Of a DNA stretch of 64,000 nucleotides, positions 18,146-45,006 are shown piece after piece. Position numbers and translations under genes: made by a program. The DNA is from a virus (taxonomy: Duplodnaviria; Heunggongvirae; Uroviricota; Caudoviricetes), in the IMG/VR virus record IMGVR_UViG_3300020685_000002. One strand, written 5' to 3'. The notes beneath the pieces were generated by a model, which ran no database searches, was not told where the DNA came from, and saw nothing but the letters and a program-made list of their open reading frames with translations. Positions within the stretch are counted from its first letter, which is position 1. The number at the start of each line of letters is the position of its first letter.

Positions 18146-18149
18146 GTTT

Positions 18150-18240
18150 GGAAGAGTGGTTGAGTGGTTTAAGACAGCAGTCTTGAAAACTGTCGAGGGT
18201 TAATACCCCTCCGTGGGTTCGAATCCCACCTCTTCCGCCA
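18150..18240 (+). tRNA. tRNA-Ser (anticodon TGA), class II with a long variable arm and an encoded CCA end.
   Basis: The acceptor is GGAAGAG/CTCTTCC, the anticodon loop is CTTGAAA, the variable arm is long, the T-arm is GTGGG-TTCGAAT-CCCAC, and the 3' end reads G-CCA. Confidence 0.75.
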
Positions 18241-18245
18241 TTTTC

Positions 18246-18323
18246 GCACCACTAGCTCAATTGGTTAGAGCTCTCCGCTCATAACGGATAGGTTCTGGGT
18301 TCAAATCCCAGGTCGGTGCACCA
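18246..18323 (+). tRNA. tRNA with anticodon CAT (Met or Ile2). The acceptor stem is imperfect.
   Basis: D-arm AGCTCAATTGGTTAGAGCT, anticodon loop CTCATAA, T-arm CTGGG-TTCAAAT-CCCAG and a 3' CCA are present. Only 5 of 7 acceptor pairs can be drawn. Confidence 0.55.
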
Positions 18324-29873: not shown

Positions 29874-30209
29874 ATGGAAAAACGATATACAGTTGTTGGT
29901 GAAGATATTGATATATCTGATGGTTATCATACAATGTCAGAATTATATGCACATAGATGTACACTATTTGCTGCATTGTTAAAGTCTCACCCACAAGCTT
30001 CTTGGAAGAGTAAAAAACACAGCGATGGTACATCTTGGGATGGTTGGTTTATTGCTGGTATGAGATTACCAACAGGTGATGTTACATATCACCTTCCTGT
30101 AGACGAATTTTGGGAAATTCTTCCGATTGCTGAGTTGGAATTTGGTGTCGTTTGGGATGGTCATACATCTGATGATGTTGTGAGACGAATTATGGAATGG
30201 ATAAAATGA
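29874..30209 (+). CDS. Hypothetical protein.
   Basis: 111 aa ORF translationally coupled to g41. Confidence 0.4.
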   Translation: MEKRYTVVGEDIDISDGYHTMSELYAHRCTLFAALLKSHPQASWKSKKHSDGTSWDGWFIAGMRLPTGDVTYHLPVDEFWEILPIAELEFGVVWDGHTSDDVVRRIMEWIK

Positions 30210-30916
30210 GTAGTGCTGTTGTAATAATTCCAACAATTGGTTCTGTTGTTTTAGATCAAACATTAAAAAGTTTAGAGAATCAAACTCATAAAGATGTAAC
30301 AACATTAATTGTTGTTGATGGTCCTGAATATAAATCTAAAGTTGATAATATTATAGATAAACATCCAAATTTAAACAAACAGGTTGTTTATTTACAAGAA
30401 AATGTTGGCGCAAATGGATTTTATGGACAAAGAGTATATGCTGCATTTTCCCATTTAGTAAATAAAGATTATGTTTTCTATCTTGATCAAGATAATTGGT
30501 ATGAGCCTAATCATATTGAATATATGATTAATACAATAGAATCTACTGGATGCCAATGGGCATATAGTTTAAGAAATATATATTCTCCTGATGGCGATTA
30601 TTTGCTTCAAGATAATTGTGAAAGTTTGGGGAAATGGAACGCTTATACAAATACTAACATGGTTGATACTAATTGTTATTGTATTCCAAGAAATATAGCT
30701 GTAGAAATATCAAGATTTTGGCATTGTGGTTGGGGTGAAGATCGTGTTATTTTCTCTATTTTAAATGAACATTTTCCTAATTATGAATGTTCTGGTAAAT
30801 ATACAATAAATTATAGATTAGGTGGAAATGTGGGTTCTGTATCAAAAGATTTTTTTGAACAGGGAAACAGTGTAATTGATAGTCAATATAAAGGAAAATA
30901 TCCATGGGCGAAATAA
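30197..30916 (+). CDS. Glycosyltransferase family 2 (GT-A).
   Basis: N-terminal VVIIPTIGS pattern and a DQDN (DxD) motif. Confidence 0.55.
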   Translation: MDKMSSAVVIIPTIGSVVLDQTLKSLENQTHKDVTTLIVVDGPEYKSKVDNIIDKHPNLNKQVVYLQENVGANGFYGQRVYAAFSHLVNKDYVFYLDQDNWYEPNHIEYMINTIESTGCQWAYSLRNIYSPDGDYLLQDNCESLGKWNAYTNTNMVDTNCYCIPRNIAVEISRFWHCGWGEDRVIFSILNEHFPNYECSGKYTINYRLGGNVGSVSKDFFEQGNSVIDSQYKGKYPWAK

Positions 30917-31671
30917 AAATATTATGTTATATATTTTCTTGGAAAGGTCAGTTTGAAAATGCTGTCAAATTGCAAGAACAATTATCTCCGTTATTAGATG
31001 TAGTTGTAATAAATTCTGATGATGATAATACAAAAGAGGGTTGGATTAATATTGGGAACGAATGTTATTTTTCTGATCAGTTTAGAACTGCTCTAGATGC
31101 ATTTGATGATTCAAAATATGATGTTTTGTGGCATATTCAAGCTGATGCTTCTTATTCTGAGTGGGAACCAATTATAAAATCAGCAAGAGAAAGTTATAAT
31201 ACTTATAATTGGGGTGTATTTGCTCCAAATGTTAACGATACATTTTACATTTCAGAAAGAACTGATGTTTCAGATTTAGATGGAAATTTAAAACTTGTTG
31301 CAACAACTGATAATACTTGTTGGTTTATTCATAAAGATTATATTAATGCAATGAAAGCTAATTATCATTTAATGAGAGAAAATATTTTAGGTTGGGGTTG
31401 GGATTTAATTATTTGTGCTCTTAGTCATCTTGATGGTCGATATGTCATAAGAGATTATTCTTTCGAAGTTAATCATCCTACTTCAACAGGATATATGAAA
31501 GATAAAGCAGAGAAAGAAATGCAAGAAATGTTTCAAAAATGTGATTTAAAATTACAAGAAACTATTTATAATATTAAGGTAAAACCAAGAGAATTGGGAA
31601 AATTATATAATATTCAACAAGTTTCTAATTCTGCTGAAATAATTTATAATACTGCAACAGGAATTTATTGA
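30904..31671 (+). CDS. Hypothetical protein, possibly glycosyltransferase-like.
   Basis: The ORF lies inside the glycan island and is translationally coupled to its neighbours. No clear motif is present. Confidence 0.35.
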   Translation: MGEIKILCYIFSWKGQFENAVKLQEQLSPLLDVVVINSDDDNTKEGWINIGNECYFSDQFRTALDAFDDSKYDVLWHIQADASYSEWEPIIKSARESYNTYNWGVFAPNVNDTFYISERTDVSDLDGNLKLVATTDNTCWFIHKDYINAMKANYHLMRENILGWGWDLIICALSHLDGRYVIRDYSFEVNHPTSTGYMKDKAEKEMQEMFQKCDLKLQETIYNIKVKPRELGKLYNIQQVSNSAEIIYNTATGIY

Positions 31672-32510
31672 TGAAAATTTCATATTTAGATTTTTGGCCA
31701 GGATTTGATCCTTCTTCAAATTGGTTTAATTTACTATTGCGTGGTGCATTTCCTGACAGAGAAATAAAAATAACAGCACCTGAATATGCTGATGTTATTT
31801 TCTTTTCATGTTTTGGTAGTGAACATCAAGTATATAAAAATTCTAAAGCAATTAAAATTTTATATATTGGCGAAAATGAAAGACCCAATTATTCTGTTGC
31901 TGATTATTCGTTAAGTTTTGATTTTGATGATTATTCAGGAAGAAATTTTAGACTTCCTCATTGGTATCTATATATAAATTGGTGGGACGAACCAAATTTT
32001 CAACATGCTGAAATTCCATTGATTGCTTTGACTAAATGGATTGACTCTAAAGAAATTTGGAATAGAAAAGAATTTTGTTCTATAATAATTGGTAATCCAG
32101 TTCAAAATAGAATAGATACTGCAGCAAAATTAAACGAATTTAAACCTGTTCATGGATTTGGTAGGGTGTTTAATAATCCTGTAGATGATAAACTTAAACT
32201 TTTGTACAACTATAGGTGGAATATTTGTTTTGAGAATTCTATATATGATGGATATGTGACAGAAAAATTATTACAAGCTAAAATTTCTGGGTGTATTCCT
32301 TTATATTATGGATCTAATGCAGCTACTATAGATTTTAATAAAGATTGTTATCTTGATATTACAGGTCTTTCATTAGAACAAATTTATAAAAAAGTTGTAG
32401 ATATTGAAAATGATAAAAATCTATTTTTGGCTATTTCTTCTGAGCCATTATTTAATACTTTACCAACATTAGACCCATTATATAATTTTTTAAAGGATAA
32501 ATTAAAATAA
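31668..32510 (+). CDS. Alpha-1,3-fucosyltransferase-like (GT10 family).
   Basis: The GT10 signature WNICFENSIYDGYVTEKLLQAKISGCIPLYYG resembles the FxL/VxFENSxxxxYxTEK motif of FucT. Confidence 0.6.
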   Translation: MMKISYLDFWPGFDPSSNWFNLLLRGAFPDREIKITAPEYADVIFFSCFGSEHQVYKNSKAIKILYIGENERPNYSVADYSLSFDFDDYSGRNFRLPHWYLYINWWDEPNFQHAEIPLIALTKWIDSKEIWNRKEFCSIIIGNPVQNRIDTAAKLNEFKPVHGFGRVFNNPVDDKLKLLYNYRWNICFENSIYDGYVTEKLLQAKISGCIPLYYGSNAATIDFNKDCYLDITGLSLEQIYKKVVDIENDKNLFLAISSEPLFNTLPTLDPLYNFLKDKLK

Positions 32511-32511
32511 T

Positions 32512-33435
32512 ATGCAAAAAGATTTTTATGAAATAAATGATTTGATTGGTGAGCGATTACAATCTGGAGAACCATTTTCTGTTTTGCGTATTGATAATAC
32601 TGCTGGATATGTTCTTGATTGTTTACACGAAAAACAATCTCCAAGCGAAGAATTTTACAATAATTATACGTTAGTTGAAAGTGGAATTTATCCGACTGAT
32701 TTAAATTATTCATTTCAGGTTGTGATGCCTAAAACTATAGAAATGATGAAACAATGTAATATTTTAGGGTTTGTTGATGTTTCTGGTAAAATTAAAGCAA
32801 ATGAAAATAAATTTTTAGATCAATTCCCAGATAAACCCACATTTTTTGATTTTCATATTTTTGATGCTGGATATATAATGGGGTATTCTAAGTTTGGAAA
32901 ACTAGAAAATCCTTGGACAAAATATCTCAAAGGGAAAAAGGTTCTTATTATTTCTTCCCATGCAAAAACGATTTTACATCAATGGAAAAATATTAATAAA
33001 ATATGGGGCGATAGAGTAGAAGAAATAGTTCCTTTTGAATTGGTTGATGCAATCAGTACGCCATTTCATCCTGCTATTGATGATAGACAATATAAAGATT
33101 GTGGTGATTTTGAGCAATTAGTAAATATAACGAAAGATAGAATTGATCAATATGATTATGATGTATTATTAACAAGCGTTACAACACAATCTCCGTTTTA
33201 TGCAAATCATGCTAGAGAAAGAGGAAAGGTTGGTATACAAACTGGCGGTGCTTTACAGTTATTTTTTGGTATTTTAGGTGGAAGATGGTTGAATCCTGAT
33301 TATTATAATTATTGTTATCCATCACCAGAAAAATTATTTAATGAGTATTGGATTTATCCTCTTGAAGAAGATGAACCACAAAAACGAAACGAAATTGGAT
33401 TTCTTGAAACCTCAACTGCATATTGGAAAGTATAA
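32512..33435 (+). CDS. Hypothetical protein (glycan island).
   Basis: 307 aa ORF with no recognised motif. Confidence 0.35.
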   Translation: MQKDFYEINDLIGERLQSGEPFSVLRIDNTAGYVLDCLHEKQSPSEEFYNNYTLVESGIYPTDLNYSFQVVMPKTIEMMKQCNILGFVDVSGKIKANENKFLDQFPDKPTFFDFHIFDAGYIMGYSKFGKLENPWTKYLKGKKVLIISSHAKTILHQWKNINKIWGDRVEEIVPFELVDAISTPFHPAIDDRQYKDCGDFEQLVNITKDRIDQYDYDVLLTSVTTQSPFYANHARERGKVGIQTGGALQLFFGILGGRWLNPDYYNYCYPSPEKLFNEYWIYPLEEDEPQKRNEIGFLETSTAYWKV

Positions 33436-33438
33436 ATT

Positions 33439-34773
33439 ATGAATAATAATGATTTAAGTGAAATTTTAGCATCAGTAAAAAGTTATGCTGAAAATAATTT
33501 GTTGACAAAAAAATGGGAAGCTGGTATTGATTATGTAAATTATGCTGGTCCATTTTTTGATCATAATGAATATGTTGCTGCCGTAAATACTATTTTAAAT
33601 GGTTGGCTTGTGATGGGAAATGATAGTTTAAAATTTGAACATAAATTTCCTAAATTTTTTGGTAAAAATCATGGGATTCTAACAAATAGTGGATCTAGTT
33701 CAAATTTGTTAATGATGTATAGCCTAACAAGCAAAAACGGTCATAATTTCCCAAAAGGAACAAAAGTCTTGATGCCTATTGCTGGTTTCCCGACAACATT
33801 AAATCCGACACTTCAAGTTGGATTTGAACCTATATTTCTTGATATCGAATTAGATACTTTAAATCTTGATTTAACTAAAGCTGAAGACTTGATAAAAGAA
33901 CATGACATTAAAATAATAACATTTGCTCATGTTTTAGGTAATCCGCCAGATATGGACAAATTGATGGATTTAGTTAACAAATATAATTTGATTCTTTTGG
34001 AAGATTGTTGTGATGCTTTAGGTTCTAGTTATGATGGAAAACCATTAGGCAGTTTTGGTGAGATGGCTTCTTGTAGTTTTTATCCAGCACATCATATTAC
34101 AATGGGTGAAGGTGGATTTGTTTCTTGTAACACTAAAGAACAAGAAGTTATTTTAAGAAGTTTAAGAGAGTGGGGTCGTGGTTGTTATTGTGTTGGTCCC
34201 AAAGCAAATACCCTAAAATGTGGAACATGTAAAAATAGATTTAGTAATTGGATTCCAGCATTGGAAAATGAAACTTTTGATCACAAATATGTTTATGATG
34301 AAATTGGATTTAATTTAAAGCCTATTGAAATGCAAGCATCAATTGGTCTTCATCAAATTGAGAAATTGGATACTATTGGACAATTAAGAAAGAAAAATTA
34401 TAATCTGTTATTTCAAATTTATGAAAAATATGAAGAATTCTTTCATCTTCCAAGAGCTAGAGATAAATCTGATGTGAGTTGGTTTGCTTTTCCATTGACT
34501 ATTAGAAAAGGTGCTCCATTTACACGATTTGAGTTTGTTAATTATCTTGAAAATAAAAAAATTCAAACTAGACCATATTTTGCTGGAAATATTATGTTAC
34601 AACCTGCGTATACACATATTATGGATACAAATACTGCAAAAGTGAATTATCCAAATGCAACATATACTACTACACATACATTATTCCATGGAACAAGTCC
34701 AGTAATTAGCGATGATCAAATTGCCTATATAAAAATAGTAGTAGATGATTTTATGAAACAGTTTATAGGATAG
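33439..34773 (+). CDS. DegT/DnrJ-family PMP-dependent sugar 3-dehydratase, RfbH/DdhC (E1)-like.
   Basis: The aminotransferase class-V-like fold is present. The PLP-Lys position reads His (SFYPAHHITMGEGG). A Cys cluster, CYCVGPKANTLKCGTC, matches what is expected of an E1 iron-sulfur site. Confidence 0.55.
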   Translation: MNNNDLSEILASVKSYAENNLLTKKWEAGIDYVNYAGPFFDHNEYVAAVNTILNGWLVMGNDSLKFEHKFPKFFGKNHGILTNSGSSSNLLMMYSLTSKNGHNFPKGTKVLMPIAGFPTTLNPTLQVGFEPIFLDIELDTLNLDLTKAEDLIKEHDIKIITFAHVLGNPPDMDKLMDLVNKYNLILLEDCCDALGSSYDGKPLGSFGEMASCSFYPAHHITMGEGGFVSCNTKEQEVILRSLREWGRGCYCVGPKANTLKCGTCKNRFSNWIPALENETFDHKYVYDEIGFNLKPIEMQASIGLHQIEKLDTIGQLRKKNYNLLFQIYEKYEEFFHLPRARDKSDVSWFAFPLTIRKGAPFTRFEFVNYLENKKIQTRPYFAGNIMLQPAYTHIMDTNTAKVNYPNATYTTTHTLFHGTSPVISDDQIAYIKIVVDDFMKQFIG

Positions 34774-34776
34774 GTT

Positions 34777-35463
34777 ATGATTTTATTGGCATCTATTCAT
34801 ACCCCATTAAATGGGTATGAACAAAATGATTTTTCTGAAGTTGCAAATATTACTTGGAATTTAAATAAGGTAAATTATGCTAAAAAACATAATTATCTTG
34901 CAATAAGTAAATCGAATGGTTTTTATAATGTTCAAATAGGGTTTGAAAAAATAATTTTTCTTTATGATTTGTTAGTTAGCGTTCCTCAGTGTTCTTGGAT
35001 TTGGTGGACTGGTTGTGATACACTAATTACAAATTTTAATGTTAGAGTTGAAGAAAAGCTTGAAGAAGCATTAAACATAAATCCAAACGCAAATATTATT
35101 ATGAGTGGTGATTTTAATTTCCCTATTAATAGTGATTCTATTTTGATTAAAAATACTGAAGAATCGAAATTGTGGTTAAAATTTATACTTGATAATTTTG
35201 AGGTATATTCACAAAAACCATATTTTGAACAAGAATGTATGATTGATTTTTTATCAAATTTTGATAAACTGATTCAAATAATGCCACAAAATTTTATGAA
35301 TAGTTATGATGAAAATTCGGCTGATAGTGAAAAGATAAAATTTGATACAAAAGGTAATAGAGGTAATTGGGAAAAGGGTGATTGGTTACTACATCTTGCT
35401 GGAATTAGCTGGCAAAAACGTGCCCAATTGGTTAAACAATATTCTAAAGAAATAATATATTAA
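34777..35463 (+). CDS. Hypothetical protein, putative nucleotide-sugar transferase-like.
   Basis: A WIWWTGCD motif is reminiscent of the GT34/DUF273 family. This is a weak call. Confidence 0.3.
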   Translation: MILLASIHTPLNGYEQNDFSEVANITWNLNKVNYAKKHNYLAISKSNGFYNVQIGFEKIIFLYDLLVSVPQCSWIWWTGCDTLITNFNVRVEEKLEEALNINPNANIIMSGDFNFPINSDSILIKNTEESKLWLKFILDNFEVYSQKPYFEQECMIDFLSNFDKLIQIMPQNFMNSYDENSADSEKIKFDTKGNRGNWEKGDWLLHLAGISWQKRAQLVKQYSKEIIY

Positions 35464-35464
35464 T

Positions 35465-36091
35465 ATGAAAGATCAAGAACTTATTGAATTTGAAAACAAA
35501 GTTGCTGATTTGTTTAATAATAAACAAATTAGAGCTCCTATCCATTTATATCATGGAAATGAAAAGCAAATACAAACAGTATTTGAAAAAATAGATACTG
35601 AAAATGACTGGGTTTGTTGTACATGGAGAAATCACTATCAATGCTTATTAAAAGGTGTTCCTGAAGAATTGTTGATAGAGAAAATCCTTGCTGGTAAAAG
35701 TATGGTAATAAACTTGGAACAATATAAAATTGTATGTTCAAGTATTGTTGGTGGAATTCCTAGTATTGCAGCTGGTATTGCAAAAGCAATCCAACTTAAA
35801 GAAGAAAAATCTAGAGTCTGGTGTTGGTTAGGGGATATGAGTGCTGAAACTGGAGCTTTTCATGAAGCATATAAATATGCTGTTGGATTTAATCTTCCAA
35901 TAACATTTATTGTTGAAGATAATGGATTAAGTGTTACATCTCCAACTTCAGAAATTTGGGGTAGACAAACTCCTTGGTATTTACCTGAAGAGTTTACTGG
36001 TGATAAATTTGAATCAGAACATTTAATATACTACAAATATAAAAACGAAAAATATCCTCATGCTGGTGCTGGGGTTAGGGTGGAATTTTAA
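35465..36091 (+). CDS. TPP-dependent enzyme, alpha (N-terminal, TPP-binding) subunit (transketolase or E1-alpha-like).
   Basis: TPP-binding motif LGDMSAETGAFHEAYKYAVGFNLPITFIVEDN (GDG-N24-N type). Confidence 0.55.
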   Translation: MKDQELIEFENKVADLFNNKQIRAPIHLYHGNEKQIQTVFEKIDTENDWVCCTWRNHYQCLLKGVPEELLIEKILAGKSMVINLEQYKIVCSSIVGGIPSIAAGIAKAIQLKEEKSRVWCWLGDMSAETGAFHEAYKYAVGFNLPITFIVEDNGLSVTSPTSEIWGRQTPWYLPEEFTGDKFESEHLIYYKYKNEKYPHAGAGVRVEF

Positions 36092-36092
36092 T

Positions 36093-36635
36093 ATGAATGA
36101 ACAACAATTATATAATAATGAATTGATCGCTGCCATGAAATGGCTTTCTGAGCAAGAAAATACTTTATTTTTGGGTCAGGCTGTTAAATATCCAGGAACT
36201 GGATTATTTCAAACATTACATTCTGTTCCTGACGAATTGAAACTTGAATTTCCTGTTACCGAAAATTTACAAATAGGATTTAGTATTGGAATGGCATTAA
36301 ATGGTATTGTTCCAATTTCTATTTTCCCAAGGTGGAATTTTCTTGTTTGTGCCGCCGATCAACTCGTCAATCATTTAGATAAATTGCCGTCAATGAGTCT
36401 TGGTGAATATAACCCAAAAGTTATCATTAGAGTTGCTGTTGGGTCAGAATTACCTATCGATCCACAAGACCAACATAAAGGTAATTTTTCTGAAGGATTT
36501 AGAAATTTGTTTAAACATGTAGATATTATTGAATTACACACACCTGATGATATTTTAAAAAGTTATCAGTATGCATATAATAGAACTGATAATAAAAGTA
36601 CAATATTAGTAGAATTTTCTGATTATGGAAAATGA
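36093..36635 (+). CDS. TPP-dependent enzyme, beta (pyrimidine-binding/C-terminal) subunit.
   Basis: A transketolase C-terminal/E1-beta-like region is present. The start codon directly follows the alpha-subunit stop. Confidence 0.5.
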   Translation: MNEQQLYNNELIAAMKWLSEQENTLFLGQAVKYPGTGLFQTLHSVPDELKLEFPVTENLQIGFSIGMALNGIVPISIFPRWNFLVCAADQLVNHLDKLPSMSLGEYNPKVIIRVAVGSELPIDPQDQHKGNFSEGFRNLFKHVDIIELHTPDDILKSYQYAYNRTDNKSTILVEFSDYGK

Positions 36636-37419: not shown

Positions 37420-38363
37420 AAAAGATTATTTATATTACAGGATGTCTAGGGTTTATAGGTTCTGAAATAACAAGAGCATATTTAGATAAAGGTTGGTATG
37501 TTATTGGTGTTGATAAAGTCACATATGCTGCAAATGAATCATTAATACCAGAATTTGAATCATATTCAAATTTTAAATTTATAAAATCAGATATAAACGA
37601 TTTAGAATATCTTTATGATTGTGATTATATTATTAACACAGCAGCCGAAACACATGTAGACAATTCTATAATAAGTTCTAGCGAATTTTTAAATAGTAAC
37701 ATTAATGGTGTGCATCATCTATTGGAGTTAATAAAACAAAAACATAAATTTAAAATGCCAACATTACTACATTTCAGTACTGATGAAGTTTATGGTGATA
37801 TAGTTGATGGGTTTCATAAAGAATATGATTTATTAAAACCTTCAAATCCTTATTCGGCAACAAAAGCTTCTGCGGATATGCTTGTTCTTGCATGGAATAG
37901 AACTTTTAATATTCCTTATGTTATTGTACGTCCAACAAATAATTATGGTATTGGTCAGTATGTTGAAAAATTAATACCTAAAACATGTAAATATCTGCAA
38001 TTAGATAGAAAAATTCCTGTACATGAAAATGGAAAACCAAAACGAACTTGGTTACATGTTTCTGATACTGTTTCAGCAGTTATACATATAATTGAATCGG
38101 GAGTAACAAATTCAATTTTTAATATTTCTGGAAATTATGAAGATGAGAATATTAAAGTAGTTGACAAAATCATAAAATTATATTATAATACTTCTATAGA
38201 TTATAATAATTATGTTGATTTTAAATATAATAGGATTGGTCAAGATGTTAGGTATGCTATTGATGATTCAAAATTAAAATCTCTTGGATGGAATCCTGTT
38301 GCAAATTTTGATTTAGAATTAGAGAAAATTGTTGAATATAATAAAAATCACTTTATATGGTGA
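37416..38363 (+). CDS. NDP-sugar 4,6-dehydratase or epimerase (extended SDR).
   Basis: Rossmann motif TGCLGFIGS, catalytic YSATKAS (YxxxK) and an STDEVYGD motif. Confidence 0.6.
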   Translation: MKKIIYITGCLGFIGSEITRAYLDKGWYVIGVDKVTYAANESLIPEFESYSNFKFIKSDINDLEYLYDCDYIINTAAETHVDNSIISSSEFLNSNINGVHHLLELIKQKHKFKMPTLLHFSTDEVYGDIVDGFHKEYDLLKPSNPYSATKASADMLVLAWNRTFNIPYVIVRPTNNYGIGQYVEKLIPKTCKYLQLDRKIPVHENGKPKRTWLHVSDTVSAVIHIIESGVTNSIFNISGNYEDENIKVVDKIIKLYYNTSIDYNNYVDFKYNRIGQDVRYAIDDSKLKSLGWNPVANFDLELEKIVEYNKNHFIW

Positions 38364-38381
38364 TTAATTGAAGGTGAACTT

Positions 38382-39389
38382 ATGAAGAAAGCGTTAATAT
38401 TTGGTGTAACTGGTCAAGATGGGAGTTATCTTTCTGAAATTCTTTTAGAAAAAGGTTATGAGGTTCATGGTGTAAAACGAAGAAGTTCTTCATATAATAC
38501 ATCACGAATCGATCATATCTATGAAAACAAAAACTTTAAATTACATTATGGTGATGTTACTGATTCGCTTAATGTGACAAGTCTTATTCAAGCAATTCAG
38601 CCTGATGAGATCTATAATTTGTCCGCTCAATCTCATGTAAAAGTTTCTTTTGAAATTCCAGAATATACTGCGAATGTTGATGCTGTAGGTACTCTTAGAG
38701 TTCTTGAATCTATTCGTTTACTTGGTATGGAAAATCGAGTTAAATTTTATCAAGCATCAACTTCTGAATTGTATGGTTTAGTGCAAGAAATTCCACAAAA
38801 AGAAACAACTCCATTTTATCCAAGAAGTCCATATGGCGTTGCTAAACTCTATGGATTTTGGATTGTAAAAAATTATAGAGAATCATATAATATATTTGCG
38901 TGTAATGGTATTTTATTTAATCACGAATCTGAGAGAAGAGGTGAAACTTTTGTCACTCAGAAAATTGTAATGGGATTAAATGATATTTCTCAAGGCAAAT
39001 CAGACATATTGACGCTTGGTAATTTAAATGCATTAAGAGATTGGGGTCATGCTAAAGATTATTGTTATGCCATGCATTTAATGCTCCAACAAGATACTCC
39101 AGATGATTATGTCGTTGCTACTGGCGAACAATATTCCGTTAGACAATTTGTAGAAGCTTGCGCCCCGCATTTTAATATGAACATTGAATGGCAAGGTGAA
39201 GGCTTGGATGAAACTGGAATTGATGTTAATACTGGAAAAACTATAATTGCAGTTGATCCTAAGTATTTTAGACCAGCAGAAGTTGCAACATTATTAGGTG
39301 ATTCTACAAAAGCTAGAACTGTATTAGGATGGAAACCAGAATATAGTTTTATTGATTTGGTTGAAGAAATGTGTTTAGGGGTTCAATAG
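38382..39389 (+). CDS. gmd: GDP-mannose 4,6-dehydratase.
   Basis: [15 protein letters not shown]..., [21 protein letters not shown] and NHESERRG are hallmark Gmd motifs. Confidence 0.85.
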
Positions 39390-40148
39390 GTGAGCATAGT
39401 TTTACGTGAAGAATCTGGTCGTGGATTTTTGTCAAATTATATTACAATTTTAAATTCGTATAAAAAGTTTGTTGGTAAAGAAGGAATATCTTATAAAGAT
39501 ATACACATTTCAACAGAACATTTTAAATTGTATGGTGGAAATCCTAGAGAATGGTTTGATGTTTATAATTTTTCTGATGGCGACGAAAACTCGGAATTCT
39601 GGAGTACTGGAGAGTTAAATGAAATTGAAGAATATCCAAATGTTGAATCCTTAAATTTATTAAGTTATTCAAAGTTTATACCATATAATACAAGACTTAA
39701 AACATTTCTTAATAAAAATATAAAATCATTAAATAAATGTTTAGGTGTTCATTATAGAGGGACTGATCATTTTAATGCTGTTATTAAACCTGATATTATG
39801 TTTCTTAATGTAGAAGAACAGTTAAAAACAGGTAAATATGAGCAAATTTTTATTTGTAGCGAACAACAAAACTTTATTGATCTTATAGCAGGTTTTGTTC
39901 AAATTAATTTTAATGACGTTGATATAATTGTTAATGATGTTGAACGATGTGATTCAACTCCTGTATTTTATTTAGATACCAATAAGATATCATTAGGCGA
40001 TCAAGTTTTATTGGATGCTCATATGTTATCAGCTTGTGATTTTGTATTGGGTAAATCATCAAACATTGTTAGTTATGCACGGATTCTAAATTTAAGTTTG
40101 AATGGTTTTTATTTAGATACTCAAAAATATTTTTTAATTGGTAATTAA
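39390..40148 (+). CDS. Hypothetical protein with a fucosyltransferase-like HxRxxD motif (GTG start).
   Basis: An HYRGTDH motif and a C-terminal SSN..SYA region are reminiscent of GT11/GT23/GT65 motif sets. This is a weak call. Confidence 0.3.
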   Translation: MSIVLREESGRGFLSNYITILNSYKKFVGKEGISYKDIHISTEHFKLYGGNPREWFDVYNFSDGDENSEFWSTGELNEIEEYPNVESLNLLSYSKFIPYNTRLKTFLNKNIKSLNKCLGVHYRGTDHFNAVIKPDIMFLNVEEQLKTGKYEQIFICSEQQNFIDLIAGFVQINFNDVDIIVNDVERCDSTPVFYLDTNKISLGDQVLLDAHMLSACDFVLGKSSNIVSYARILNLSLNGFYLDTQKYFLIGN

Positions 40149-40150
40149 TT

Positions 40151-41083
40151 ATGGAAAAGAATTCAAAAATTTATGTTGCTGGCCATAATGGCTTAGTTGG
40201 TTCGGCAATTGTTAGAAAATTAAAAGAATTAGGATATACTAATCTTGTTTTAAAAACAAGAAAAGAATTAGATCTTAGGAATCAATATGCTGTTGACAGG
40301 TTTTTTGATATTGAGCGACCTGAATATGTTTTTGTTGCTGCAGCAAAAGTTGGTGGAATTAATTACAATAAAATGTATCCTGCAGAATTTATTACTGAAA
40401 ATTTACAAATTCAAACAAATATAATCAAAAGTGCTTTTGATTATAGAATAAAAAAGATTTGTCAATTGGGTACTGCTTGCATTTATCCTAAAATAACAGA
40501 ACAACCAATAAAAGAAGAATACTTAATGACAGGTCCATTAGAACATACTAATGAAGCTTATGCATTAGCTAAAATTTCTGGTTTGATGATGTGTAAAAAA
40601 TATTATGAACAATATGGATTTAAAAGTATTAATGTGATGCCAACAAATCTTTATGGTATAAATGATAGATTTGATGTGAATCATGGTCATGTTATTCCTG
40701 GATTAATTAATAAATTTTTAGAAGCTAAAGAAAGCAATTCTAGTAGTGTAGAATGTTGGGGAACTGGTACTCCTACAAGAGAATTTTTATTTTCTGATGA
40801 TTTAGCTGATGCATTGATTTTTCTGATGAATACTCAAGAATATGTTGATTTGATTAATATTGGTATTGATAATGAAATTACTATTAAAGAATTGGCAGAA
40901 AAGATTAAAGATTTGGTTGGATATGAAGGTGAAATAATTTGGAATTCTGATAAACCGGATGGAACTCCAAGAAGAAAGATGTGTAATGCTAAATTGAAAG
41001 AACTTGGTTGGAAACCAAAATATACTTTAGAAGAAGGATTAAAAATAACATTAGATTGGTATTTGGAAAACATTAGGTCATAA
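40151..41083 (+). CDS. GDP-L-fucose synthase (Fcl/WcaG) or GDP-colitose synthase ColC-like 3,5-epimerase/4-reductase.
   Basis: IYVAGHNGLVGSAI, VFVAAAKVGGI, YALAKISG (YxxxK) and PTNLYG motifs. Confidence 0.75.
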   Translation: MEKNSKIYVAGHNGLVGSAIVRKLKELGYTNLVLKTRKELDLRNQYAVDRFFDIERPEYVFVAAAKVGGINYNKMYPAEFITENLQIQTNIIKSAFDYRIKKICQLGTACIYPKITEQPIKEEYLMTGPLEHTNEAYALAKISGLMMCKKYYEQYGFKSINVMPTNLYGINDRFDVNHGHVIPGLINKFLEAKESNSSSVECWGTGTPTREFLFSDDLADALIFLMNTQEYVDLINIGIDNEITIKELAEKIKDLVGYEGEIIWNSDKPDGTPRRKMCNAKLKELGWKPKYTLEEGLKITLDWYLENIRS

Positions 41084-41085
41084 TA

Positions 41086-42264
41086 ATGAAAAAATTGAAA
41101 TTGAAATGTGGTTGGAAATTGATGAATAATTCTATCACAATAAAAGATAGAATTAATTTGGCTAAATTTGTTTTATTTTCTGATAGATTCACTATGGCAG
41201 ATAAAGTAAACCAAGTAGAGAAAGAATGGGCTGAATGGGTTGGCGCTAAACATTCTTTATTTGTTTCTTCTGGAAGTACTGCAAATTTTTTATTATTAGC
41301 TGCGATTAAAGAAAAATTTAATTTAAAACAAAAAGATAAAGTTTTAGTTTCTTCTTGTACTTGGATGACAAATGTTTCTCCAGTAATGCAATTAGGTTTT
41401 ACTCCTATCTTTTGTGATGTTTCTTTTGATAATTTCAGTTTTGATGAATCTGAATTAGCATATATTTCAGAAAAACATCCTGACATTAAAGTTGTTTTTA
41501 CAACACACCTTTTGGGATTTAATTCAGATACTAAAATATTAGAATCATATTTTCCAAATGCTATCATATTAGAAGATGCGTGTGAAGCAATGGGCGCAAA
41601 AGCTAATGATGGAACTTATCTTGGTGCAAATTCTTTAGGGTGTACATTCAGTTCATATTTTGGTCATACTATTTCTTCAATTGAAGGTGGTTTTGTTACT
41701 ACAAATGATACAGAATTATATGATTTGATGAAAATGAAAAGAAGTCATGGTTTAGCGAGAGAATCAATATTTTTTGATGATTATGCTGCCAAATATCCTT
41801 ATATTGATAAACAGTTTTTATTTATTACTGATGGTTATAATTTCAGAAACCACGAAATATGTGCAATTTTAGCTTCTTCTCAGATTAAAAGATTAAAATC
41901 CTTTGTTGATATTAGAAGTAAAAATCATAAATTGTTTTCTGAGATGACTGAAAAATATTTAGATAAAATTCAACAGATTAAATTTTATGAAACTAGTGCG
42001 AGTTTTTGTTTTCCTATTATATGTAAGGATGCAGAATCGTTATCTAAATTAAAAACGTTGTTGGTAGAATATGATATTGAATATAGACCAATTTTATCTG
42101 GAAATTTATTAAAACATCCATTTCTAAAAGATTATATATTGACAACGAATCGTTTAGTCGCTAATGTTGATGTATTACACACTAATGGATTATATATAGG
42201 AAATAATCAATTTGTATCTGAAAAACATTTAAAGTTATTGGATAAAGTTTTAAGTTTATTATAA
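41086..42264 (+). CDS. DegT-family PMP-dependent dehydratase, ColD-like (GDP-4-keto-6-deoxymannose 3-dehydratase).
   Basis: A DegT fold is present. His replaces the PLP-Lys in SYFGHTISSIEGG, which is the ColD hallmark. Confidence 0.55.
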   Translation: MKKLKLKCGWKLMNNSITIKDRINLAKFVLFSDRFTMADKVNQVEKEWAEWVGAKHSLFVSSGSTANFLLLAAIKEKFNLKQKDKVLVSSCTWMTNVSPVMQLGFTPIFCDVSFDNFSFDESELAYISEKHPDIKVVFTTHLLGFNSDTKILESYFPNAIILEDACEAMGAKANDGTYLGANSLGCTFSSYFGHTISSIEGGFVTTNDTELYDLMKMKRSHGLARESIFFDDYAAKYPYIDKQFLFITDGYNFRNHEICAILASSQIKRLKSFVDIRSKNHKLFSEMTEKYLDKIQQIKFYETSASFCFPIICKDAESLSKLKTLLVEYDIEYRPILSGNLLKHPFLKDYILTTNRLVANVDVLHTNGLYIGNNQFVSEKHLKLLDKVLSLL

Positions 42265-42271
42265 GGGTTTT

Positions 42272-43117
42272 ATGAATTCAATTAGAGAAAAGGTAAAAGA
42301 ACTTAGTGTTGTTTTTGTAGGTCCAACAAGAGATAGTTCTGGAAATCTTACAAAAATATTTGAGAATATTGAAAGAATTGGTGGACTATTTAAATCTTTT
42401 TCTTGTGTATTTGTGGAAAGTGATTCTTCTGATAATACTTTAGAAATTCTTAAAAATTATAAAAGTGGTCGCGATAATATTCATATACTTTCTTTAGGGA
42501 AATTAGAAGATAGAATTAATTCTAGAACATGTAGGATTGCTACAGCAAGAAATGTTGGGATTGAATATTGTGAACAAAATAATATCTTAGATACTCATGA
42601 TTATTATATTCATATGTGTGTTGATGATGTTAATAGTGAAAAGATTGAAGAAGAAGATTTCTTAAGTTGCTTTAAATACGACATATCTTCTTGGGAAGGT
42701 ATGACAGCAAATCAGTTAAATTATTATGATATTTGGTGTTTACGAGCAAAAGGTTGGGTTGAAAATGATTGTTGGTATGCAATTCATAATAGACCTTCTT
42801 ATATGTCTTATGATGAAGCATTTATAATGTATGTAGGATCTAAATTTATACAAATTCCAAAAAATTACGGTTTAATTGAAGTTGATGCTGCTCATGGCGG
42901 TTTTGGAATCTACAAAAGTTCTTTTGCTAAAGGTTCTCGGTATAGAGGTTCTTCTGAAGCTGGTAATGCAGAAGAATGTGATTTAGTAAATTTCTGTAGT
43001 GATGTTAAGAAGAAAGGTGGAAGAATATTTATAAACTCAGAATTGATGAATATGAATAATGTAAATAATAGACATGATACCACAGTTCAAAGTTTACGAT
43101 CTTTAGGTAAATTGTAA
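42272..43117 (+). CDS. Hypothetical protein (glycan island).
   Basis: 281 aa ORF with no clear motif. Confidence 0.35.
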   Translation: MNSIREKVKELSVVFVGPTRDSSGNLTKIFENIERIGGLFKSFSCVFVESDSSDNTLEILKNYKSGRDNIHILSLGKLEDRINSRTCRIATARNVGIEYCEQNNILDTHDYYIHMCVDDVNSEKIEEEDFLSCFKYDISSWEGMTANQLNYYDIWCLRAKGWVENDCWYAIHNRPSYMSYDEAFIMYVGSKFIQIPKNYGLIEVDAAHGGFGIYKSSFAKGSRYRGSSEAGNAEECDLVNFCSDVKKKGGRIFINSELMNMNNVNNRHDTTVQSLRSLGKL

Positions 43118-43902
43118 TGGGAAATATTACTAATACAAATATTCATGGGTCGTGTCTATTAGGGTCTCAAATGTTTGAGTATTCTTATTTAATTGCTGTT
43201 TCTTTAGAAAATCCTGGAGTTGTTCCAGGATTTTATTTAAAAAATCTTCCTGGAATGTTTGGTTTGTTAATAAATTTTCCATTTATACATAAACCTAAAA
43301 TTTTTGAAGGAGAATGTGATTATTCTGGTATAAACTACAATCCTTCTGATGTTTTAGCTTTTGATCGTAATTATGATATACATTTCAATTTCGATTATAG
43401 CATTTTTCATAAACATAAAGAATATTTGTTAAATTTATATACATTTTTGCCAGAAATATATTCTAATTGTAATACATGGATAAAAGATAATTCTTCACCA
43501 GACGAATTGTTAGTTTCAATCCATTTTAGAAGAGGCGATTATTTATCGATTTCTTCATTAAACCTTTCTTTAGAATATTTTTATGGAGCAGTTGAAACAA
43601 TTAAAAATAAACTTCCAAATTCAACATTAAAATTTGTGTGTTTTTCTAATGATATTACATGGGTGAAAGAGAAATTTGTTGGTATAGATAATATGATATT
43701 TGTTGAATCGTTATCTGATCCTGAACAAATGTGTTTAATGTCTTTATGTGACCATAATATCATTGCAAATAGTAGTTATAGTTGGTGGGGTGCATATTTA
43801 AATAAGACACCTGAAACAATAACTATTTGTCCATCAAGTTATGGTAGTGCAGATGTAATAAGTTATTATCCTGATGAATGGATAAGAATGAACGTGCTTT
43901 AA
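43117..43902 (+). CDS. Alpha-1,2-fucosyltransferase-like (GT11 family).
   Basis: GT11 motifs HFRRGDY (HxRRGD) and SSYSWWGAYL. Confidence 0.65.
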   Translation: MGNITNTNIHGSCLLGSQMFEYSYLIAVSLENPGVVPGFYLKNLPGMFGLLINFPFIHKPKIFEGECDYSGINYNPSDVLAFDRNYDIHFNFDYSIFHKHKEYLLNLYTFLPEIYSNCNTWIKDNSSPDELLVSIHFRRGDYLSISSLNLSLEYFYGAVETIKNKLPNSTLKFVCFSNDITWVKEKFVGIDNMIFVESLSDPEQMCLMSLCDHNIIANSSYSWWGAYLNKTPETITICPSSYGSADVISYYPDEWIRMNVL

Positions 43903-43913
43903 TTGAGATTAAT

Positions 43914-44918
43914 ATGATAATAGAATCTGATGTAAATAATATAATAAAATCTATAGATTTTGAAAAACTAAGGAATAAATCTATCTTAATCACAGGATCT
44001 TCTGGGTTATTAGGAATTTATTTTGTTTCTTGTTTAAAAACAATACAGAAAGAATATAATATTGATGCTTATTTTTGGATAAAAAGTGATATTGATTCAA
44101 ATTTTAAATCCTTTTTTGATTTTGATTGTCATATAATTAAGGAAGATATTAGCGATCTAAAAGCATTCGATTCATTACCTATGTTTGATTTTATTATTCA
44201 TTCATCAGGTTATGGTCAGCCAGATAAATTCTTAGAAGATCAGATAAAAACCATCCAAATAAACACCACAGCTACAATTAATTTATTTGAAAAATTAAAT
44301 CCAAATGGAACATTTTTATTTTTAAGTTCTAGTGAAGTTTATAATGGTTTAGATAAGTTTTCTGTGTCAGAAGATGAGATCGGGGTATCAAATACAACTA
44401 ACCCTAGAGCGTGTTATATTGAATCAAAGCGTTGTGGTGAAGCTATTTGTCATATTCAAAAAAATATGGGTAAAGATGTAAAAATTGCTAGATTGAGTTT
44501 AACATATGGTCCAGGAACAAAACCGTTTGATACTAGGGTTGTTAGTTCTTTGATTCAAAAATCTATATTAAATGATTCTATAGAATTGAGAGATAGGGGC
44601 GAAGCTATTAGAACTTATTGTTATATTTCTGATGTAATAGAAATGATGTGGAATATTATTTTGCATGGAAAAGAAGTGACTTATAATGTTGGTGGAAATA
44701 CTACATTTAGTATATTTGAAATGGCAAATATTATCTCTACTAAAACGAATAAACCAATACTTTTGCCAGAAACATCAAAAACGTTAACTGGCAGCCCTAA
44801 AGTTGTTAATATTAATATTGATAAGTATATATCCGAATTTAACAAAACTTCATTCATTGCTCTTGATGAAGGTTTAAATAATACAATTCTTTGGCAACAA
44901 CATATATACAAAATTTAA
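43914..44918 (+). CDS. NAD-dependent epimerase/dehydratase (SDR). The track ORF begins at 43878, but the ATG at 43914 is the likely start.
   Basis: ILITGSSGLLG Rossmann motif, SSSEVYNG and catalytic YIESKRCGE (YxxxK). Confidence 0.55.
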   Translation: MIIESDVNNIIKSIDFEKLRNKSILITGSSGLLGIYFVSCLKTIQKEYNIDAYFWIKSDIDSNFKSFFDFDCHIIKEDISDLKAFDSLPMFDFIIHSSGYGQPDKFLEDQIKTIQINTTATINLFEKLNPNGTFLFLSSSEVYNGLDKFSVSEDEIGVSNTTNPRACYIESKRCGEAICHIQKNMGKDVKIARLSLTYGPGTKPFDTRVVSSLIQKSILNDSIELRDRGEAIRTYCYISDVIEMMWNIILHGKEVTYNVGGNTTFSIFEMANIISTKTNKPILLPETSKTLTGSPKVVNINIDKYISEFNKTSFIALDEGLNNTILWQQHIYKI

Positions 44919-44998: not shown

Positions 44999-45006
44999 TA
45001 TAAATA
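44999..45006 (+). promoter_or_regulatory. Late promoter box TATAAATA.
   Basis: GATTTATAAATACTT lies about 30 nt upstream of the ATG at 45036. Confidence 0.45.

Follow-up and report, generated by a model that had tools for sequence, protein, structure and literature searches.

A 14.7 kb sugar island in an uncultured T4-like phage with candidate pathways to GDP-fucose or colitose and to a branched dideoxy sugar

In a 64,000-nucleotide stretch of viral DNA (Caudoviricetes; IMG/VR record IMGVR_UViG_3300020685_000002), here called the window, we analysed a sugar island at positions 30197-44918 (14.7 kb). It consists of 17 consecutive open reading frames (ORFs; o01 to o17), all on the plus strand, 180-444 amino acids (aa) long and spaced by -25 to +18 nt. 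According to our gene tally it encodes about eight glycosyltransferases (GTs), three of them of fucosyltransferase type, and nine sugar-nucleotide enzymes. It thus corresponds to the definition of a phage lipopolysaccharide (LPS)-type sugar island, a contiguous GT and nucleotide-sugar cluster within a T4-like genome. We consider it rather probable that the enzymes follow a two-branch biosynthetic logic, one branch yielding GDP-L-fucose, GDP-L-colitose or both and the other a C-4-branched 3,6-dideoxyhexose, and that the island is functional; the choice of the acceptor lies outside this estimate. A preliminary description of this DNA had delimited the same contiguous block, and its coordinates proved exact. 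Family membership, catalytic motifs, gene linkage and purifying selection are direct observations.

The GDP-sugar branch comprises three enzymes. GDP-mannose 4,6-dehydratase (Gmd; o11, 38382-39389) is assigned at equivalog level by TIGR01472 (5.6e-164; 545 bits against a cutoff of 415) and shares 72% aa identity with gp223 of the cyanophage ACG-2014f. The island's sole Fcl-family protein, o13 (40151-41083), is an Fcl/ColC-type GDP-4-keto-6-deoxymannose epimerase/reductase, whose match to NF047922 (2.4e-125, 418 bits) lies under the Fcl equivalog cutoff of 500, with the catalytic Cys110 (in ACIYP), His180 (in HVIP) and YxxxK motif (YALAK) kept. The third, o14 (41086-42264; start at 41122 in some gene calls), is a ColD-type GDP-4-keto-6-deoxymannose 3-dehydratase, which matches PDB entry 2gms over residues 27-381 (1.6e-50) and is 49% identical to ACG-2014f gp225. 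Its His194 aligns with His188 of ColD, in a column that is fixed by the PDB entries of the H188N and H188K mutants, and no Cys-cluster (Fe-S) motif was found in its translation or in the ColD alignment. By the published criteria for telling 3-dehydratases apart from aminotransferases, and ColD apart from E1/SpnQ (PMC8987622), o14 is a ColD-type 3-dehydratase and o05, described below, is E1-type. All three enzymes had been named in the preliminary description, the last as a pyridoxamine phosphate (PMP)-dependent enzyme with His in place of Lys, and these identifications held.

For both branches we infer substrates, products and the order of steps. Gmd would convert GDP-mannose of the host into GDP-4-keto-6-deoxymannose, which o13 would turn into GDP-L-fucose; if the ColD-type enzyme acted before o13, GDP-L-colitose would result. 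The last gene of the island, o17 (43878-44918), encodes an extended short-chain dehydrogenase/reductase (SDR; Epimerase 4e-32) nearest to UDP-glucuronate decarboxylase (UXS), with human UXS as best PDB matches (2b69 and 4gll, 7.5e-26) and a YIESK motif. This enzyme may supply a pentose donor.

The second branch starts with o10 (37416-38363), an RmlB-type NDP-glucose 4,6-dehydratase that scores 290 bits with the dTDP-glucose profile TIGR01181 (below its cutoff of 365) versus 68 bits with the CDP-glucose profile TIGR02622. The top PDB matches are all dTDP-glucose 4,6-dehydratases (1.6e-66), and the motifs TDE and YSATK are present. The enzyme o05 (33439-34773) is an E1/RfbH-type NDP-4-keto-6-deoxyhexose 3-dehydratase dependent on PMP and a [2Fe-2S] cluster (NF011936, 430 bits against a cutoff of 423; PDB 3bcx, the Yersinia E1, 1.6e-95, about 50% identical by eye). 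It keeps the catalytic His within SFYPAHH as well as the cluster cysteines (DCC and CYC...CGTC), in agreement with its earlier description as an RfbH/E1-like dehydratase with a Cys cluster.

Two short ORFs, at 35465 and 36060/36093, are not transferases and turned out to encode the halves of a minimal E1-like thiamine diphosphate (ThDP) enzyme. The diphosphate-binding (PP) half, o07 (35465-36091, 208 aa; mini-E1a), matches E1_dh (1.8e-17) and pyruvate dehydrogenase (PDH) E1alpha (1.4e-22) and has a GD-X27-NG motif at residue 123. The pyrimidine-binding (Pyr) half, o08 (36093-36635, 180 aa from the ATG at 36093, the mechanical ORF start being 36060; mini-E1b), matches Transket_pyr (3.6e-4) and PDH E1beta (1e-9). 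At its residue 65 stands PVTEN, which we take to be the catalytic-Glu context of E1beta. Neither protein is a full-length E1 chain: the scores against PDH E1 are 80 and 38 bits versus equivalog cutoffs of 394 and 321, coverage of E1_dh is 4-170 of 300, and o08 holds the Pyr domain only, with no beta C-terminal domain. Since both match E1_dh and Transket_pyr and not the TPP_enzyme domains, they do not belong to the acetolactate synthase (ALS)-type family of YerE, and the resemblance to YerE is one of analogy.

We assign the two proteins to one enzyme because PP+Pyr fusions of about 400 aa exist (in the cyanophages S-SM2 and P-TIM68 and in P0279). When the long forms of mini-E1a homologs were examined for hints at the substrate, these fusions were the only informative ones, the others carrying homing-endonuclease/HNH, kinase-like or intein domains. 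The o07 family has 3504 metagenomic homologs, and the best 120 are all 205-225 aa long. One homolog of 550 aa (P0320) has a Hint-type intein apparently inserted at the ThDP-binding GDG motif, and two others (P0315 and P0285) have N-terminal domains that, read by eye, are LAGLIDADG-like or HNH-like.

The last enzyme of this branch, o09 (36625-37419, 264 aa), is a small divergent SDR (Epimerase 7e-7; RmlD N-terminus 4e-6; sole PDB match RmlD, 5.5e-4) and a candidate for the reduction of the branch or of the 4-keto group, in a role like that of YerF. The island therefore holds three further SDR enzymes, o09, o10 and o17, and not the two extra ones that had been counted before.

In Yersinia, YerE branches CDP-3,6-dideoxy-4-ketoglucose using pyruvate, which gives the two-carbon branch of yersiniose, and YerF reduces the branch (PMC9306805). 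Actinomycetes use E1-like pairs, AviB1/B2 and Pau11/12, for which C-4 acetyl branching from pyruvate has been proposed or shown (PMC4753412). SpnQ has dTDP sugars as its substrates and relies on general ferredoxin or flavodoxin reductases (PMC8987622); because o05 is paired with an RmlB-type enzyme and lacks an E3 partner, we regard it as SpnQ-like. In the simplest reading, o10, o05, o07/o08 and o09 would together make a C-4-branched 3,6-dideoxyhexose resembling yersiniose. The RmlB-type dehydratase would convert host NDP-glucose, probably dTDP-glucose, into NDP-4-keto-6-deoxyglucose, and the E1-type enzyme would take off the 3-hydroxyl group with the help of general host reductases, as SpnQ does. 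The ThDP enzyme would then attach an acyl branch at the C-4 ketone (acetyl, if pyruvate is the donor), and the small SDR would reduce the product to a yersiniose-like octose. The earlier proposal that the island could make GDP-fucose and a colitose-like sugar is upheld in part: the enzymes of the GDP-fucose/colitose branch and the fucosyltransferases are confirmed, whereas the E1/RfbH enzyme is no second route to a colitose-like sugar and belongs to a separate NDP-glucose pathway.

The gene neighbourhoods of other viruses bear on this assignment. Relatives of o05 with 65-76% identity occur on more than 100 IMG/VR viral contigs. We collected 80 loci seeded by mini-E1a and 80 seeded by RfbH, and clustered the 3546 ORFs of 159 loci de novo. 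The RmlB-type dehydratase family was present in 149 of the 159 loci and the RfbH-type family in 145, followed by the o09-type small SDR (107), E1 alpha (104) and E1 beta (101). Of the 80 loci seeded by mini-E1a, 78 contain E1b, 74 an RmlB-type and 57 an RfbH-type gene. A ThDP enzyme stands beside RfbH in 71 of the 80 RfbH-seeded loci, in three architectures that never co-occur in that set: the mini-E1a/b pair (25 loci), a YerE/ALS-type protein of 575 aa (24 loci and one C-terminal fragment) and a split transketolase-like PP+Pyr pair (21 loci).

The ThDP genes mostly begin at the RfbH stop codon: for E1a the distance is at most 50 nt in 23 of 24 loci, and for the YerE-like gene at most 15 nt in 13 of 24. 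A small SDR, if there is one, usually comes straight afterwards, and its gene overlaps the end of E1b (21 of 22 loci) or of the YerE-like gene (7 of 13). The best solved relative of the viral YerE/ALS-type protein is, by a clear lead (397 versus 263 bits), JanthE, a characterised YerE-like carboligase (9.5e-118). Because the slot next to RfbH holds the mini pair, a YerE-like enzyme or a transketolase-like enzyme interchangeably, we propose a yersiniose-like, C-4-branched product. The third architecture (in L002-L008, L017, L020, L036 and other loci; e.g. L006, 11313-12398) consists of a PP protein of about 200 aa and a Pyr protein of about 160 aa (Transket_pyr 2.4e-18); downstream there are often two genes of RmlB type.

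Several points weigh against this two-branch scheme. In the GDP-sugar branch, the sequence of the single Fcl-like enzyme does not decide between fucose and colitose. In the other branch, the nucleotide carrier follows from the type of dehydratase alone, the GT34-like gene o06 stands between RfbH and the ThDP pair in the window, and o07/o08 are very far from canonical E1 (best PDB match 5e-5). Profile scans of 44 ORFs (the 17 of the island and 27 others of the window) revealed no sugar-1-phosphate nucleotidyltransferase, no match to NTP_transferase or phosphomannomutase (ManB, ManC) and no E3 reductase. Likewise, no E3/AscD-type reductase was found among the 31 identified or profile-scanned families of the 40 commonest in the 159 related loci. 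The completeness once ascribed to the pathway cannot be upheld, as nucleotidyltransferase, E3 reductase and export genes are all missing from the ORFs scanned. Moreover, about a quarter of the E1a loci have no RfbH within 8 kb, so that the branch may be placed on a 4-keto-6-deoxy sugar and not on its 3-deoxy derivative, and nine E1a-seeded loci carry both the mini pair and a YerE-like gene, so that the two may not be exactly equivalent in function.

Some of the same observations would suit a ThDP pair with other chemistry, of decarboxylase or transketolase type, with an acyl or glycolaldehyde donor or on another intermediate. In that case o09 would reduce the RfbH product to a plain 3,6-dideoxyhexose of abequose or paratose type. 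The fused homologs in S-SM2 and P-TIM68 have neighbours of heptose type (kinase, isomerase, nucleotidyltransferases, Zn-ADH) and no RfbH, the latter being absent also in 18 of the 72 E1a loci that have enough flank, and the nine loci with both enzymes fit as well. The o09-type SDR is found in YerE-type loci too, and its family resembles RmlD-type 4-reductases. We nevertheless regard this explanation as unlikely: the three architectures, one of which is the biochemically defined YerE type, share the slot at the RfbH stop codon and exclude each other in 80 loci, an enzyme that makes a 4-keto sugar is linked almost universally to mini-E1a (74 of 80 loci), and a branching role of E1-like pairs has been proposed or shown in avilamycin and paulomycin biosynthesis (PMC4753412). 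Sugar C-branching remains our preferred role for the pair.

The predicted activated sugars are matched by a set of GTs. The GT2 (30197), GT10-like (31668) and GT11-like (43117) enzymes named before were all recovered. The first gene of the island, o01 (30197-30916; start at 30206 according to gene callers), encodes the GT2-family enzyme (PF00535 2.2e-12). The GT10 alpha-1,3/4-fucosyltransferase-like protein o03 (31668-32510, with ATG at 31671) matches FucT_N (1.2e-17) and Glyco_transf_10 (7.5e-10); it has the alpha-1,3-fucosyltransferase motif FENS...YVTEK, with FENSIYDGYVTEK at residue 188, and belongs to GT10 by the criteria of CAZy. The GT11 alpha-1,2-fucosyltransferase-like protein o16 (43117-43902; PF01531 1.1e-23) belongs to GT11 by the same standard, with HFRRGDY at residue 136 and SSYSWWGAYL at residue 219.

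The third fucosyltransferase-type enzyme, o12 (39390-40148), has no Pfam match and belongs to no sequence family. Its AlphaFold2 model (pLDDT 91.5) has a GT23/GT65/GT37-like fold, and all 39 Foldseek matches in the PDB at E<=1e-3 are GDP-fucose transferases (FUT8, NodZ, POFUT1/2, AtFUT1). Its HxRGTD motif has three invariant residues (H121, R123, G124) and two that hardly vary (T125, D126), in a family with just 24 homologs among 5.8e9 proteins. The predicted fold and the donor-binding motif HxR..D point to a member of the fucosyltransferase superfamily (GT23/GT65/GT68/GT37). Similarly, o02 (30904-31671) has no Pfam or NCBIfam match and is modelled with a GT-A fold (pLDDT 90.7), whose Foldseek PDB matches are B4GALNT1, ppGalNAc-T2, chlorovirus HAS, TarP and mimivirus R699 (E from 6e-9); it has 233 metagenomic homologs. 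Two of the unassigned ORFs, at 30904 and 39390, are thereby predicted to be transferases.

The GT34-like (GMA12/MNN10 family) protein o06 (34777-35463; PF05637 6.1e-18), encoded between RfbH and the ThDP pair, is missing at that position in the related locus L138, and its family occurs in 25 related loci. Two assignments are weak. The putative GT-D-like transferase o04 (32512-33435) matches PF22882 at 5.3e-6 (26.4 bits, cutoff 27) and NF040628 at 2.5e-4, and is kept in 21 related viral loci; the putative GT-A/GT2-like transferase o15 (42272-43117) matches PF00535 (1e-3) and PF10111 (1.9e-3), both below the cutoffs, and has homologs in three near-syntenic viral loci. Together, these about eight soluble GTs, three of them fucosyltransferase-type, would assemble an oligosaccharide in the cytoplasm.

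Is such an island of use to the phage? It could be a passenger, part of a bacterial O-antigen cluster that was taken up recently and does nothing for the life cycle of the phage. For cyanophage LPS clusters, this "stuffer" possibility was considered by Sullivan et al. (PMC3037559), and it would be in line with pathways that lack nucleotidyltransferases and export genes. We consider it highly improbable. All 17 ORFs are intact, and dN/dS values, computed against L138 (gp41 85% identical), are 0.057 for o05, 0.086 for o07 and 0.097 for o08, as low as for the replicative helicase gp41 (0.097). The values for four GTs are 0.22-0.54, with o01 at 0.54, which shows that the GTs evolve faster than the sugar enzymes. 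The base composition is that of the phage, with GC 0.281 and a mean GC3 of 0.143 in the island versus 0.290 and 0.160 in nine core genes. The pseudogene or stuffer reading was therefore rejected on dN/dS and composition.

Sugar cassettes also occupy the same site across the clade, and homologs of o07 contain homing-endonuclease domains and, in one case, an intein, a feature often seen in genes of phages. Searches of 185,579 cellular species representatives with mini-E1a motifs and o05 peptides gave no confirmed relative, the patterns being so narrow that absence is unproven, whereas the same peptide motifs recovered 102 and 111 viral loci. The module of RmlB, E1, ThDP enzyme and SDR, present on well over a hundred viral contigs, is apparently restricted to viruses. 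By these sequence measures, the island genes appear functional and under purifying selection as strong as that on the replicative helicase. The possibilities that profile searches would place the enzymes in unrelated families, or that the ORFs are pseudogenes, had been left open before; the profiles confirm the families, and dN/dS shows purifying selection.

The same genotype was found on at least 24 contigs from separate samples, eight of which, when compared, are 99.99-100% identical at the nucleotide level over up to 20.8 kb (runs SRR398176, SRR4029378-424 and ERZ272719xx; L130-L137, P0121 and P0145). An identical o02 protein is present on 34 contigs of up to 119 kb, and contigs of 113-119 kb carry the genotype. 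The recurrence of the genotype points to a persistent and abundant natural population.

What, then, would the sugars be attached to? Phage transferases have three targets, DNA, the host serotype and the virion (PMC12619734). The preliminary description had named the virion and host LPS; DNA must join them as a candidate because the same phage has a TET/JBP dioxygenase beside a GT-B gene. Judged jointly, virion proteins and a host envelope glycan are each possible but short of even likelihood, some other acceptor is unlikely, and DNA is more unlikely still. We place the virion marginally first because export machinery is lacking here and in the related viral loci, and because of the precedent of clusters resolved in lytic viruses. 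To our knowledge, the sugar clusters of lytic viruses that have been resolved by experiment proved to serve glycosylation of the virion or of DNA.

The export genes deserve a closer look. Among the 44 ORFs scanned we found no initiating phosphoglycosyl transferase, flippase or transporter, polymerase or ligase, and the island does not qualify as a Wzx/Wzy- or ABC-dependent O-antigen cluster. No transmembrane segment was predicted in any island protein, and only 6 of the 3546 ORFs in the 159 related loci have at least four hydrophobic segments, none of them Wzx- or Wzy-sized. Two observations speak against a virion acceptor: the island is grouped with replication and not with structural genes, and we know of colitose and yersiniose otherwise only from bacterial surface polysaccharides.

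Remodelling of the host envelope is the more familiar interpretation. The island enzymes would act on undecaprenyl-linked intermediates of O-antigen, capsule or core, which the flippase, polymerase and ligase of the host would export, and the altered surface of the infected cell might, for example, block superinfection or keep progeny off debris. Bacterial GT10 and GT11 enzymes fucosylate LPS, and all enzyme families of the island are typical of O-antigen clusters. Colitose has been described as a sugar of LPS O-antigens, and yersiniose occurs in those of Gram-negative bacteria (PMC8987622, PMC4753412); and the standard reading of cyanophage LPS clusters is one of host envelope modification (PMC3037559, PMC12801897). 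As O-unit transferases are normally soluble or peripheral, the lack of transmembrane segments is no argument against this target, and the fast-evolving GTs would suit an arms race at the cell surface.

We hold envelope remodelling to be possible rather than probable. An initiating transferase, Wzx, Wzy, an ABC transporter and a ligase are missing from the island, from the other ORFs scanned and from the 159 related loci, and about eight GTs imply a largely new unit that Wzx and Wzy of the host would have to accept. The phage serotype conversions that we know to have been demonstrated use membrane proteins of temperate phages. In addition, the RfbH and mini-E1a clades, without a match in the cellular representatives by the motifs that recovered the viral loci, speak for long residence in viruses rather than mimicry of a cluster of the current host.

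The case for DNA starts outside the island. A Tet_JBP 2-oxoglutarate (2OG)/Fe dioxygenase gene (6595-8013, minus strand; PF12851 7.6e-28) adjoins a Glycos_transf_1 GT-B gene (5242-6582, minus strand), and the pair directly follows gp23. By gene content, a TET/JBP enzyme with an adjacent GT, the pair at 5242-8013 looks like a 5mYOX-GT DNA hypermodification module. Of the related IMG/VR loci, 18 have the dioxygenase (62-73% aa identity) with gp23 on one side and UvsW on the other, and one more is a near-identical copy. A variable slot of 0.9 to 3.8 kb separates the dioxygenase from gp23, and no homolog of the GT-B gene was detectable there.

On this basis, the island sugars and GTs might build a complex glycan, with fucose or colitose and a C-4-branched dideoxy-octose, on 5-hydroxymethyl pyrimidines made by the dioxygenase, with the GT-B enzyme or the conserved GT2 as initiator. 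Besides the clade-wide conservation of the dioxygenase next to a variable slot, the position of the island beside replication genes and the solubility of all its proteins would be compatible with such a role. Phage 5mYOX-GT clusters place mono- to trisaccharides on 5-hydroxymethylcytosine by means of LPS-related GTs (bioRxiv 10.1101/2023.12.21.572611) and co-occur with sugar epimerases (PMC13229309).

However, the dioxygenase lies 22 kb from the island on the opposite strand, related phages keep it alongside quite different islands, without specific co-variation, and no C5-methyltransferase was found among the window ORFs scanned. The DNA glycans reported so far have no more than three sugars, of hexose, HexNAc or heptose type. 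The known acceptors of GT10, GT11 and GT23-like enzymes are glycans or proteins. Both the DNA target and the elaborate glycan that it would entail therefore appear improbable to us.

The comparison with known systems clarifies which parts of the island are new. The T4-like cyanophage LPS clusters, for which the question of functional versus stuffer DNA was raised (PMC3037559), are, like the island, multi-kb single-strand blocks of nucleotide-sugar and GT genes that include GT10 and GT11 (P-SSM2, S-SSM7, S-SM2, P-TIM68, S-SCSM1/2R, ACG-2014f). S-SCSM2R has 13 GTs, GT10 and GT11 among them (PMC12801897). In these clusters and in the island alike, the function of the block is a predicted one. ACG-2014f has, in the same order, Gmd (72%), an Fcl-like enzyme (49%), a ColD-like enzyme (49%, His kept) and a GT11-like enzyme; S-SM2 and P-TIM68 carry the fused o07+o08 homolog in a heptose-type context.

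The differences concern location and content. The island follows gp41, whereas the cyanophage clusters lie near hli/psbA or phoH and tRNAs; unlike them, it has no nucleotidyltransferase, kinase or heptose genes. It has in addition the RmlB-RfbH-ThDP-SDR module, RfbH being at most about 41% identical to its counterpart in any cultured phage record. Size and content had earlier been called unusual, which overstated the case: large T4-like cyanophage LPS clusters have been documented since 2010 (PMC3037559, PMC12801897), ACG-2014f has the GDP-sugar module, and RfbH genes are present on more than 100 IMG/VR contigs. In ACG-2014f (NC_026927.1, L237; a cultured lineage with 54 records) the row of Gmd, Fcl/ColC-like, ColD-like (TFSFYFGHH) and GT11-like genes at 10077-13990 is annotated merely as "nucleotide-sugar epimerase", "aminotransferase" and "glycosyltransferase"; by its gene content it looks like an unrecognised colitose-type module in a cultured isolate.

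Outside the cyanophages, the island shares with the GDP-L-colitose pathway of E. coli O55/O111, Y. pseudotuberculosis and V. cholerae O139 the Gmd, the ColD with its diagnostic His and the Fcl-family reductase. It differs in lacking ManB and ManC and in having a single reductase, so that fucose, colitose or both may result. The yersiniose A pathway of Yersinia pseudotuberculosis (DdhA-C/AscA-C with E3, YerE and YerF) has the same succession of E1-type 3-dehydratase, ThDP enzyme and reductase, and related viral loci have a true YerE-like enzyme in the corresponding position. In contrast to yersiniose A, the ThDP enzyme of the island is a two-subunit E1-like mini-enzyme and not an ALS-type flavoprotein, and in contrast to yersiniose A and the ddh-asc pathway in general the 4,6-dehydratase is of RmlB (dTDP) and not of CDP-glucose type, with no cytidylyltransferase and no E3. 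AviB1/AviB2 and Pau11/Pau12 (PMC4753412) are, like o07/o08, two-polypeptide PDH-E1 relatives in a deoxysugar pathway, a likeness drawn from their description. At 208 and 180 aa, with the PP and Pyr cores only, o07/o08 are far shorter than the solved E1 alpha chains of about 365-400 aa.

Among viral systems, the clusters for virion glycosylation of chlorovirus PBCV-1 (Gmd/GMER and soluble GTs), of mimivirus fibrils and of mycobacteriophage capsids and tails (the last case cited in PMC12619734) combine viral sugar-nucleotide synthesis with soluble GTs and no export machinery, as the island does, and PBCV-1 has a comparable pair of Gmd and an Fcl-type enzyme; a glycosylated virion is here a candidate. 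The 5mYOX-GT clusters resemble this genome in the Tet_JBP gene beside GT-B, the LPS-like GTs and, sometimes, sugar epimerases, whereas the island is much larger, 22 kb away from the dioxygenase, on the other strand and not co-varying with it. We know of no report of colitose or a branched dideoxy-octose on any virion.

Virome surveys list gmd, fcl and rfbH as auxiliary metabolic genes (PMC10653327), and one global catalogue deliberately leaves out contigs with LPS islands (PMC11360552). Our literature search found no paper that ties colitose, yersiniose-type sugars or ThDP branching enzymes to viruses, and these genes are unmentioned in Kavagutti 2019. The kind of element is therefore already known. 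Three features appear to be undescribed: the chemistry that we predict, the RmlB-RfbH-ThDP-SDR module and the interchange of ThDP architectures.

Whether aquatic T4-like phage sugar islands are functional or "stuffer", and what they glycosylate, has been open since 2010, and the island offers a concrete case. Because three interchangeable ThDP architectures share one slot, C-branching of sugars is a likely function for an abundant family of about 200 aa that is now mis-annotated as "pyruvate dehydrogenase E1 alpha". If the assignment is correct, much branched-chain and 3,6-dideoxy sugar chemistry would reside in phages as a major reservoir, along with compact carboligases useful in biocatalysis. 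As the enzymes are small and soluble, the pathway could be reconstituted in vitro without culture of the phage. Should the DNA reading apply, the product would far exceed every known DNA glycan in complexity, and aquatic T4-like "LPS islands" would be recast as machinery for DNA modification.

The genomic setting is that of a T4-like phage. PHROG and Pfam profiles identify the core genes portal gp20, scaffold, gp23, a UvsW-type helicase, gp46/47, gp44, gp43, UvsX, gp41 and gp61 in the window, and T4 core genes flank the island on both sides. By these genes the source is confirmed as an uncultured T4-like myophage. Its major capsid protein gp23 is about 62% identical to those of S-SKS1, the Pelagibacter phages Mosig and HTVC008M and the Methylophilales phage Melnitz. 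When 50,697 phage records were searched with the island by megablast, no DNA match to a cultured phage emerged, and the flank matched short segments of ribonucleotide reductase (RNR) only.

On the 5' side, the helicase gene gp41 is followed by a small WDGH-domain gene, which o01 overlaps by 4 nt. On the 3' side, a gap of 117 nt leads to three Lys/His-rich ORFs without an assignment and then to primase, ThyX, MazG and RNR. The earlier placement of the island between replication and structural genes is hence correct for gp41 upstream and not for the downstream flank, which is not structural. In relatives with a gp41 of 57-75% identity, a homolog of the GT2 o01 (44-71% aa identity) mostly stands directly after gp41 and is followed by different sugar genes. 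L086, for example, has an HtrL-like gene, a HAD-nucleotidyltransferase fusion, a TylF-type O-methyltransferase and another SDR. The islands of L003 and L138 are partly syntenic with the present one but lack ColD or the GT34-like gene. The island occupies a variable glycan slot after gp41 in a clade of uncultured T4-like myophages.

Its position alone suggests co-transcription with the replication genes. The T4 late-promoter consensus TATAAATA occurs at 44999-45006 (plus strand) in the 117-nt gap, 29 nt before the next ATG, and is weak evidence for a 3' boundary of the island transcription unit; the motif is not enriched in the window (12 found versus 16.7 expected). A scan for sigma-70 promoters was at chance level (116 promoter-like sites versus 127 expected), and a terminator scan of the window was uninformative (5 versus 3.9). 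A site with 12/12 agreement to the sigma-70 consensus (TTGACA-17-TATAAT) lies within o10 at 38161-38189, some 190 nt ahead of gmd; the GDP-sugar half may have an internal promoter here, or the site may be a chance occurrence in AT-rich DNA.

Behind the late-promoter-like TATAAATA, the second of the three Lys/His-rich ORFs (d1, d2 and d3), d2 (45973-47448, 491 aa), has weak PHROG "cytidyltransferase" matches in its C-terminal half (3.9e-9 and 2e-6), an HxGH-like motif (SHEGH) and no Pfam match. We considered it as the missing nucleotidyltransferase and did not adopt it, given the lack of a Pfam match, the wrong superfamily for sugar-1-phosphates and the location behind a late-promoter-like site.

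Further observations concern the rest of the window. UvsX is encoded in two ORFs (26356-27264 and 27430-27987), each with an extra tail or head and about 165 nt apart; in L138 it is a single gene of 360 aa, and no Rfam intron was detected at the split in the window. The RNR large subunit is likewise divided (55870-57018 and 57188-58189), with Intein_splicing matches at the junction of both ORFs, which identifies the split as an intein, possibly degraded or with an unrecognised insert. The Rfam scan found only five tRNAs, clustered at 17783-18320 (41-60 bits), and nothing within the island. An ORF of 264 aa at 16293-17087 has a sub-threshold match to Anp1 (GT62 mannosyltransferase; 6e-5, 23 bits versus a cutoff of 28.8) and may be a transferase outside the island. 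Finally, a SegE-type GIY-YIG homing endonuclease (1.4e-24) is encoded at 59926-60369, where the GC skew switches sign.

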